A stretch of DNA of 64,000 bases, taken from NCBI RefSeq assembly GCF_054482595.1, contig NZ_CM137008.1; one strand, written 5' to 3'. The notes under the pieces are model-generated. The model saw nothing but the letters and a program-made list of their open reading frames with translations, was not told the DNA's origin and searched no databases. This document shows positions 3,278 through 7,499 of the stretch, in pieces (position 1 is the first letter of the stretch; every line of letters starts with the position of its first letter). The position numbers and the translations under genes were made by a program.

Positions 3278-5301
3278 TCCACTTAGCGTTGTTACCGTCA
3301 ATTTTGGTATCAACACCGACCATGATGCCGTTAACATCCTGATCATAGTTGATGGTGCCGTTGTCACCGTTGAAGTTACCACCGAAGTAGCTTACCCATG
3401 CGCCGCCGTTATCAGCCAGGCCATGACGAGAGTTGGTCAGACGAGTACCAACGGTGTCTTGTTCCAGGTTCCAGATATTGGTGTTCGCAGACGGGATGCT
3501 CAGCGCCATGTTAGCGTAGTCGGTCAGCTCCATCTGTTGCAGAACAACGGTGTTACCGCGCTGTTCAGCCTGATAGGTGTATGCACCCAGGTCAGCTTTG
3601 TTAGCAGCAGAGAAGGTCGCGTTGCTGTTTTTGTCGTTGACGTAGATCAGCTCGTTGCCGTTGTAGTCAGCGATAGAACCAGCACCAGTAGCGTTGTCGA
3701 TACGAACTTTGTAGTTACCGGTTGCGGCTGCAACATGGTCACCGTTGTTATCAACTTCGTTCTGACCAGCTTCGATAGAAGCAGTGTTGTCGTTATCGCC
3801 GTTACCGTTAATGGTCAGGTGACCATCAGAGTTCATTGCGATTAAGCCATAACCGTAGTTTGACTTGGTAGTATCGTTGGTACGGTCGTTGACCAGATCG
3901 GTATCCATTACGTAATCACTGCTATGGATATCGAATACACCAGCGTGAATGTTGCCGTTAGTATCAGTGGTACTGGTCAGATTCAGGGTATCGGCCTGGA
4001 ACGGGTTAGCATCGAACTGATCAACGTTAACATCCAACAGACCGTCGTTAGTTACGGTGATGGTATTTGCGTACAGTGCAGCATCTTCTAAACCCCAGCC
4101 CGCAGAAACATCATCAGACATTTTAACGGTACTATTGTCGATGGTCAGGGTATTAGTCGCTACATGACCGTCTTCACCGATGTTCAGGTTAGAACCGCCA
4201 GTCAGAGAGATAGTGTCAGAGATCAGACGAGAGTCTGCAACATTAACCTGGGAACCACTGTTAATACTTAAAGTATCAATCAGAGAAGATTTTGTTGTAT
4301 CCCACTCTGAACCACCGTTCAAAGTCACATTAAACAAACCGCTCTGGTAAACTTCGTTTCCTACGATATGGCCATTTTCGTCATATTGAGTATTGATGTT
4401 ATCAACACCGACAGTTGATGAAGGCCACAGGCTGTTAGCTGCAATATCGAGCAGAGTTGCAGTTGCTTCAGTACCAACACCGTAGCTGTCGTAAACGCCA
4501 TCTGGTGTAGTGTGATCAAGGATACCGTCACCGTCTAAGTCGACTGTATACTCAAATACGCCGTCGTTGTTTGCGTCAGTACCACGGTCTTCCATATGAA
4601 CAGACATTGCAGCACCAACCCACTTGCTGCCGTTGTTCAGAGTCACATCCATACGGTCTGTGCCATCCCAACCGTTGGTATCTACATCACCATCAGCATC
4701 GCGATAGCTGTCAGCACCTTGCGGGAAGAAGTTTTCATCGAAATTACTGGAGAAAACAACATCACCCATCAGTGTTGAGTTGTCTAAAGTTACTGTAGTC
4801 TGCATCGCATTATCAGCATACGGATTTGCGATTGCGGCAATTGCAACATCGTCTGCAGTCAGCGTGTTGCTATAGTTGCTGGCATTACCAGTATGGCCAA
4901 ACCAACCAGTAGTACCTTCATCAGTCCATGAACCAGAGGTCACAGTAGAATCTTTAACAGTAATAGTGTTATTAAACACTTCGCTGCTGTTTACGCCAGT
5001 GCTGACTGTGTTGTCGTCAATATCTTCCCACTCATAACCCTGAGTCAGCGTAATACCTGCTACATGAGAGTTATTAGTGATGGACAGATCAACTTCCTGA
5101 TCCAGTGTAATAGCAGTACCCATATCGTAAACATCTACAACATGAGTGTCAGCGGCATTATTATAGGTACCGTTGTAAGTATAATGCTCGTAGTTGTCAT
5201 CGATCGTTGAATTATCAACGCTCAGTGTCAGACGATCATAAACATAACCAGTAGCACGGTCATCAGCACAATCAGTAGTCATGCACTCAGTGGATTTGCC
5301 C

Positions 5302-6207
5302 CTATATTTCCAGACACCTGTTATCACTTAACCCATTACTGGCTTGCTGCCGTAGATATTCCCGTGGCGAGCGATAACCCAGTGCACTATGCGGATGCCA
5401 TTCGTTATAATGCTCGAATGCCTCTGCAAGGTTCTTTGCTGCCGTTAACCCGTCTGGTTTGGGCATGACACTGATGTAGTCACGCTTTATCGTTTTCACG
5501 AAGCTCTCTGCTATGCCGTTACTCTCCGGACTCCGCACCGCCGTGTTCTTCGGTTCAAGCCCCAACATCCGGGCAAACTGCCGTGTTTCATTAGCCCGGT
5601 AGCATGAACCATTATCCGTCAGCCACTCTACTGGAGACGCCGGAAGCTCGTTGCCGAAACGGCGTTCCACCGCTCCCAGCATGACGTCCTGTACTGTTTC
5701 ACTGTTGAAGCCGCCCGTAGTGACCGCCCAGTGCAGTGCCTCACGGTCACAGCAGTCCAGCGCGAACGTGACTCGCAGTTTTTCTCCGTTATCACAGCGG
5801 AACTCGAACCCGTCAGAGCACCATCGCTGATTACTTTCTTTCACAGCCACTCTGCCGGTATGTGCCCGTTTCGATGGCGGTACAGCGGGTTTTCGCTCAA
5901 GCAACAGCGCATTCTGGCGCATGATCCGGTAAATACGTTTGGCATTGATCGCAGGCATACCATCAAGTTCGGCCTGTCTGCGAAGCAGCGCCCATACCCG
6001 ACGATAACCATATGTGGGCAGCTCTCCGATAACATGGTGTATACGGAGAAGCACATCCGTATCATCTGAGTGACGGCTGCGGCGACCATCTTTCCAGTCA
6101 TCGGTTCGTCTGAGAATGACGTGCAACTGCGCACGCGACACCCGGAGACAACGGCTGACTAAGCTTACTCCCCATCCCCGGGCAATAAGGGCGCGTGCGC
6201 TATCCAC
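5302..6207 (-). CDS. insD: IS2 transposase OrfB (InsD), expressed as an InsCD fusion by -1 frameshift
   Basis: 301-aa [26 protein letters not shown]... recognised as IS2 InsD; overlaps the insC 3' end; A6G slippery heptamer (plus-strand CTTTTTT 6207-6213) in the overlap. Confidence 0.9.
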
Positions 6208-6530
6208 TTTTTTGCACGCCCGTATTCAACGGCTTCTTTAAGGAGTTCATTTTCCATCGTTTTTTTGCCGAGCAGGCGCTGGAGTTCTTTAATCTGCTTC
6301 ATGGCGGCAGCAAGTTCAGAGGCAGGAACGACCTGTTCTCCTGCGGCCACAGCAGTAAGACTTCCCTCCTGGTATTGCTTGCGCCAGAGAAATAACTGGC
6401 TGGCTGCCACACCGTGTTGCCGGGCAACAAGGGAGACTGTCATTCCCGGTTCAAAACTCTGCTGAACAATAGCGATCTTTTCCTGTGTAGTACGCCGTCT
6501 GCGTTTCTCCGGTCCTAAGACATCAATCAT
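6165..6530 (-). CDS. insC: IS2 OrfA (InsC), DNA-binding/regulatory protein
   Basis: 121 aa from the internal start [18 protein letters not shown]... of the 136-aa track ORF. Confidence 0.9.
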
Positions 6531-7499
6531 CTGCTCTCCAATGACTAGTCTAAAAACTAGTATTAAGACTATCACTTAAATAAGTGATATTGGTTGTCTG
6601 GAGATTCAGGGGGCCAGTCTACTCAGAGGTAATCATACCGTGAATAGTGCTGTTTTTGATTGTCAGACTATTGGCGTTGGTATTGGTAGAAATACCGTCG
6701 TCCAGATAGTAGGTAGAAATCACCCCGTTAACAGTAGCGTTATTAATGACCGGGTAGATATCGCCGTTGTAATAGCTATCAGCGGCATAGTTGTTCCAGC
6801 CTACATAACCATCATAGTAAACATCATCAGCATAGGTGGCGTCGTTGTAGTGATGAAAAGTATTGTAAGTTTGACCAGAAATATCGTTGGTCGCTGCATT
6901 AGCCTGAGAGGTGATAGCCAGAGTGCAAGCCAATGCTAATTGTGATACTACAAGTTTCTTTTTCCAGGAGTGCATTTGTCATCCCTCCTCAGGGACGTAA
7001 TAAGTTGATCCATCAATTATCAATGCATAGAAAACATCTTATGTTTCGCGTTTACGATTATGCGGCGTTATAGAGGAATGGTTCAATTATTCTTTCCCCT
7101 AAGTCCGATTGCGGACATATATAAAAATATCTATACGCACAAAGAATAAGTTGACAAAAACACTGCATTTCAACACGTTAATGAAATCATTAATTTTGAA
7201 TTATAGATCCTGAAAATACCAAAACAACAAATCAGACAAATAATTTATCAATAAACAATGAACTTTAAGTAATTCAATTTTTGACAGTTCAACCAAATTA
7301 GCAAAAATAATAACCAGCACCTATAAATAAAAATTAAAAATATTTTCAGTGAATATGAAATTATTGCTATTTCTATTACAAAGATGTCCTGGCCTCTCTT
7401 CCATTCTCTTCTTGTCAACATCGCGACAACTTTCGTAAAACATCCCCACCCTGCTTCAGGTATACTATGCCCCTCGATTCCACAAACATCAGGCAGACC

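Follow-up and report, generated by a model that had tools for sequence, protein, structure and literature searches.

The question raised by this locus is how, and how recently, an adhesin gene of Escherichia coli came to be split in two. The gene is ehaB, known in K-12 as the pseudogene yaiT, and it lies in a stretch of 64,000 nucleotides from contig NZ_CM137008.1 (assembly GCF_054482595.1). This whole stretch is called the window here, and positions are those of the window unless stated otherwise. An earlier note, made from the letters alone, had described the interruption as a complete copy of the insertion sequence (IS) IS2, 1331 bp long at 5291-6621, between two copies of CTCAG at 5286-5290 and 6622-6626, and had taken it for a simple, recent transposition. 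A script check of the window found all of these coordinates to be right. We conclude that, almost certainly, a resident IS2 copy moved into ehaB by transposition, recently in the descent of the strain, splitting the gene after codon 118. The parts of the split gene are these:

2622..5290, minus strand: ehaB 3′ fragment, codons 117/118-1005 and the stop, encoding the remaining passenger and the C-terminal autotransporter beta-barrel
5286..5290, no strand: left copy of the target-site duplication (TSD), CTCAG, which is nt 350-354 of the ehaB coding sequence in minus-strand reading
5291..6621, minus strand: complete IS2, 1331 bp, with the transposase genes in the orientation of ehaB
6622..6626, no strand: right copy of the TSD, CTCAG, confirmed by the script check
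6622..6975, minus strand: ehaB 5′ fragment, codons 1-118, encoding a signal-peptide-like N-terminus (MHSWKKKLVVSQLALACTLAITSQANA) and about 91 passenger residues

The evidence that carries this conclusion is the empty site. The chance of a 5-bp match between the two flanks is about 1/1024. When 5291-6626, that is, the IS2 and one copy of CTCAG, is removed in silico, the two fragments join into a single open frame of 1005 codons, which begins MHSWKKK and runs to the stop at 2622-2624. The restored frame contains no frameshift, as had been predicted from the sequence. At least 11 complete E. coli genomes have an annotated, intact ehaB to which 3365 nt of the excised sequence align as a single block, without gaps and at 100% identity; among them are XH990, O157:H16 Santai, TUM18780, TUM18530, SM107 and APEC37. 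In XH990 and others, the empty site holds a single CTCAG. The 100% match to this empty site proves that IS2 came in by a simple insertion that duplicated 5 bp. A TSD of 5 bp is also found around the K-12 copy IS2A (ATTAC) and around another seven IS2 insertions, located in ehaB or in its neighbor iprA.

The interrupted gene is an AIDA-I-type autotransporter adhesin gene, the intact counterpart of K-12 yaiT. It stands between iprA (yaiV) and hemB, the same gene order as in K-12 and XH990. The name yaiT used in the earlier note holds as that of the pseudogene in the K-12 annotation; the current NCBI name is ehaB, with the product given as 'autotransporter adhesin EhaB'. Orthologues carry the names yaiT or yaiU, taken from the K-12 pseudogene (PMC13248724). 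The restored gene has 100% DNA identity to ehaB of XH990, Santai and TUM18780, among others (protein WP_000556451.1, 1005 aa), and is 99.3% identical to the ehaB of O55:H7 besides a 75-bp indel. Taken separately, the 5′ fragment is 100% identical to XH990 ehaB, and its signal-peptide-like character was read from the sequence rather than from a predictor score. The 3′ fragment matches the autotransporter beta-domain PF03797 at 1.4e-46 and TIGR01414 at 3.1e-84.

The element itself was compared with IS2A, the annotated mobile element of K-12 MG1655. Its anatomy is as follows:

5291..5331, minus strand: right terminal inverted repeat (IRR), 41 bp, with 40/41 positions as in K-12 IS2A
5302..6207, minus strand: IS2 orfB (InsD/TnpB), 301 aa, with the DDE integrase core (Pfam rve, rve_3 and HTH_21)
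6165..6530, minus strand: IS2 orfA (InsC/TnpA), 121 aa, with ATG at 6530 and stop at 6165 (Pfam HTH_Tnp_1)
6207..6213, minus strand: A6G (AAAAAAG), the programmed -1 frameshift site for the OrfAB transposase, a motif recognized as in PMC3299598 and PMC3219604
6580..6621, minus strand: left terminal inverted repeat (IRL), 42 bp, with 41/42 positions as in K-12 IS2A

The first bases of the element in the window are TGGATTTGCCCC, at the IRR end, and the last are GGGGCCAGTCTA, at the IRL end. Both termini of IS2 are thus present, as claimed before. A 41-bp IRR, a 42-bp IRL, the pair orfA and orfB and the A6G motif are the hallmarks of IS2 (PMC3299598, PMC3219604). The two genes are the two long open reading frames (ORFs) of the element, and both are on the minus strand. 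The rve domain of orfB is matched at 2.1e-19 in Pfam. Both proteins pass the NCBIfam models of the subfamily from end to end: TnpB scores 709.7 bits against NF006918, 'IS2 transposase TnpB' (cut-off 597), and TnpA scores 275.8 bits against NF006928, 'IS2 repressor TnpA' (cut-off 229).

K-12 IS2A, a member of the IS2 group of the IS3 family located in yaiX of MG1655, has the same length of 1331 bp and aligns to the element with no gaps or indels at 1272 of 1331 positions (95.6%). It shares the orfA/orfB overlap with A6G and the 5-bp TSD. OrfA is the same in both (121/121 identical to InsC1), and the 59 substitutions fall mostly in third codon positions; OrfB has 10 amino-acid changes (291/301 identical to InsD1). 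Copies of this variant are widespread. E. coli records with a full-length copy 100% identical to the element number at least 60, the best match is at 99% or better in 383 records, and 4,059 of 5,426 complete E. coli genomes have a copy spanning at least 80% of the element. From its sequence, the element is a complete, apparently functional IS2, belonging to a widespread variant 4.4% removed from the K-12 prototype. That it can transpose is suggested by its intact ORFs and ends and by identical copies at many different sites in other genomes. The NCBI annotation pipeline PGAP labels copies identical to this variant with the generic 'IS3 family transposase' and K-12-type copies with 'IS3-like element IS2 family transposase'. 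Both ORFs of the variant pass the IS2 subfamily models all the same, and the difference is an inconsistency of naming and not of biology.

Two limits apply to the view that a resident IS2 moved into ehaB. One concerns identity. In the ISfinder naming convention, an element counts as the same IS when its nucleotide identity to the prototype is 95% or more, and at only 95.6% the present element is near that boundary. The other concerns the assembly. Assemblies often go wrong at IS elements, and it is formally conceivable that the assembler misplaced a repeat copy of IS2 into ehaB. A misplaced repeat, however, would not yield a perfect 5-bp target duplication exactly at the IS2 termini, nor would its flanks, once rejoined, give a 100% empty site, and we regard such an artefact as having next to no probability. 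No sequence feature speaks against the insertion of IS2 by transposition.

IS2 sits behind codon 118 of ehaB and is co-oriented with the gene. The 5′ fragment stops immediately, in an ORF at 6619..6975 whose TAG is made up of the first three bases of IRL. The 3′ fragment retains 887 codons and has lost the promoter, the start codon and the signal peptide. There is an in-frame GTG at 5327, inside IRR, which could at most give a cytoplasmic product. Because the 3′ fragment lacks promoter, start codon and signal peptide, no exported adhesin would be made, and the ehaB::IS2 allele should be null for the adhesin. The strain is accordingly to be scored EhaB-negative, and an annotation should give ehaB as one pseudogene, made of two fragments plus IS2, and not as separate 'hypothetical' ORFs. 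As to what is lost with it, EhaB is described, in a passage of PMC13248724 that cites Wells et al. (2009), as binding collagen I and laminin and promoting biofilm formation. It is also described as being without a phenotype unless overexpressed (PMC13248724).

We then come to the time of the insertion. XH990, an E. coli isolated from human urine in Zhejiang, is colinear with the entire 64-kb window (NZ_CP019359.1, about 3664524-3727187) and differs from it by 3 single-nucleotide polymorphisms (SNPs) in 62,664 bp. The sole indel between the two is the IS2 with its duplication. The right flank at 6627-30000 (23.4 kb) is 100% identical in XH990, 88COLEC, GF66.1 and 2824. A 240-bp probe over each of the two IS2/ehaB junctions was searched against the 5,426 complete E. 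coli genomes, and neither junction was matched there in a single piece at high identity. Because the junction is absent from these genomes and near-identical genomes have the empty site, the insertion is, as judged from these comparisons, recent and, among the complete genomes searched, unique to the source strain. The perfect TSD fits the description of a simple, recent transposition with which we began. The insertion can serve as a clean strain marker against near-identical relatives such as XH990 and TUM18780.

Would an old insertion, inherited through a whole lineage, explain the same locus? Other IS2 insertions in ehaB are indeed common to many genomes; the one with TSD CTCAT at nt 605-609 of the gene is found in about 20 genomes, with identical spans. 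In the present case, however, the junction is in 0 of 5,426 genomes, the empty site is found in genomes only 3 SNPs apart over 62.7 kb, and the IS2 copy is still 100% identical to other copies. Old, lineage-wide inheritance is very improbable on these grounds, and we retain the recent and strain-specific transposition.

Two apparent occurrences of the same junction were rejected. A single-piece match at 85% identity had suggested that strain 127 or KMi012 shared the insertion. It is an insertion of the type found in strain 98218 (TSD GTCAG, nt 310-314 of ehaB) with an adjoining deletion of about 35 bp. The other came from an exact-protein look-up of the 118-aa fragment, which returned one metagenome contig of 637 bp (ENA ERZ27232766 k141_188394; L006, 1-637). 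This contig holds codons 1-118 of ehaB together with the region upstream of the gene, and its last base is the last base of CTCAG. It differs from the window by SNPs, at least one of them synonymous, and a contig broken by IS2 should end in IS2 bases. The look-up returns only contigs stopping at that codon, so the position of the contig end very probably reflects selection by the look-up itself.

As for the source of the inserted copy, IS2 copies 100% identical to the element are present in the empty-site relatives TUM18780, TUM18530, APEC37, DETEC-C31 and AHM21C2872I, where they sit at other places, such as ydeR or plasmids. These are plausible donors. No second IS2 copy, whether a donor or a partner in a composite element, was found within the 64-kb window. 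By the known pathway of IS2, the OrfAB transposase would have been produced by -1 frameshifting at A6G and would have formed a figure-of-eight, followed by a minicircle that is a copy of IS2. The abutted IS2 ends of the minicircle would have attacked the target in a staggered way, offset by 5 bp, and CTCAG would have been duplicated when the stagger was repaired. IS2 transposition is known to be copy-out/paste-in through the figure-of-eight and the minicircle (PMC3299598; the mechanism is also treated in PMC3219604). Because IS2 moves in this way, the donor copy would have been kept. Precise loss of an inserted IS2 lies outside the transposition pathway, and reversion would take a rare slippage between the 5-bp repeats. 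The restoration of the frame described above therefore serves as a formal in-silico test; it is not something to be expected in nature.

The earlier note had also stated that K-12 carries a different element, IS3, at a different place in yaiT, and had suggested an independent inactivation of the same gene. This is borne out. The K-12 allele yaiT::IS3B is like the present one in the locus, between iprA and hemB, in the gene family, and in being inactivated by an IS3-family element. It differs in that the element is IS3, 1258 bp long with a 3-bp TSD, in contrast to IS2 with a 5-bp TSD. K-12 IS3B, at 391709-392966, is inserted behind nt 1458 of yaiT and on the strand opposite to the gene, whereas the IS2 of the window is inserted behind nt 354 and runs with the gene. 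The alleles themselves differ as well, with 2907 nt in K-12 vs 3018 nt here.

A comparison of insertion positions across strains found that IS2 has entered ehaB independently at seven or more other sites, with both orientations represented. In coordinates of the gene, seven of them are the following:

nt 125-129: IS2, TSD GTAGT, in ETEC1701
nt 175-179: IS2, TSD CAACC, in CP61_Sichuan
nt 310-314: IS2, TSD GTCAG, in 98218, with the same insertion plus an adjacent deletion in strain 127
nt 572-575: IS2, TSD GTGAG, in PEC408
nt 605-609: IS2, TSD CTCAT, in the Z0117EC0051 group
about nt 1040-1170: IS2, TSD ATCAG, in MDR_56
nt 1981-1985: IS2, TSD TTGCC, in LH50-c

With the present one, at least eight distinct IS2 sites in ehaB are verified, each with a TSD of its own except for the one copy with a secondary deletion. 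These alleles, like the IS insertions in ehaB of E. coli O145:H28 that produces Shiga toxin (STEC), are IS-disrupted versions of the same gene, and the IS2 ones are full-length. They differ from the present allele in their sites and in their ehaB alleles, and none has CTCAG at nt 350-354. The exceptional copy is that of strain 127 (L004, 2625-3955), which has the right-hand IS2 junction GTCAG at nt 310-314 in common with 98218 (L012, 3548-4878). It lacks the duplication, and some 35 bp of ehaB are missing on the IRR side; a deletion next to IS2, later than the insertion itself, seems to have removed them. In the neighboring gene, E. coli O139:H1 W13-16 (L008, 2502-3832) has an IS2 with TSD TACCG in iprA and an intact ehaB; in ETEC4068 and ETEC4075 the arrangement is similar, with an oppositely oriented IS2.

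So many sites raise the question of whether ehaB is a genuine or preferred hot spot for IS2, or whether loss of EhaB has been repeatedly selected, the present insertion being one more independent event. The numbers seem at first to invite it. IS2 is in or beside ehaB in up to 125 of the 5,426 genomes, a count that includes clonally shared sites and is the sum of 53 genomes found by a query with IS2 in its native orientation and 72 found by a synthetic query with IS2 reversed. Naive uniform placement of the 24,437 IS2 places would put only about 16 in a 3.3-kb target. An apparent orientation bias, in which the first eight other insertions were all in the native orientation, was due to the orientation of IS2 in the query and is ruled out by the 72 genomes of the reversed query vs the 53. 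Besides the eight or more verified sites, K-12 yaiT has its IS3, and IS insertions in ehaB of STEC O145:H28 are already published (PMC9144400). A loss-of-function ehaB allele is also on record from wild-bird STEC (PMC10562709). Against a hot spot or selection, the counts include clonal inheritance, with many genomes on one site; purifying selection clears insertions from most other genes, a factor for which the counts are uncorrected; and they are counts for ehaB alone. There is no common pattern in the sites, the TSD sequences or the orientations, and a phenotype seen only on overexpression (PMC13248724) fits neutrality. A search of the literature for a described IS hot spot in yaiT/ehaB gave only passing mentions of IS insertions. 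We hold either form of this explanation to be unlikely. Were selected loss true, it could mean, for example, the shedding of an immunogenic surface adhesin.

Away from ehaB, the window runs from sbmA/ampH through the tau, mhp, lac, cyn, cod and prp genes to the yah genes. It has three tandem arrays of palindromic units of the type of repetitive extragenic palindromes (REP) and bacterial interspersed mosaic elements (BIME), at 22603-22911 (100 bp x 3.1), 24867-25309 (101 bp x 4.4) and 47082-47798 (94 bp x 7.6). The first of these is an inverted relative of the second. All three are present in XH990 too and are ordinary intergenic repeats.

The transposition of IS2 into ehaB is of a kind that is already known: a known IS in a known, frequently decayed adhesin gene, and a routine strain-specific mutation. 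Its meaning for E. coli is that of one further independent event in the known IS-mediated decay of the autotransporter adhesin genes of this species.
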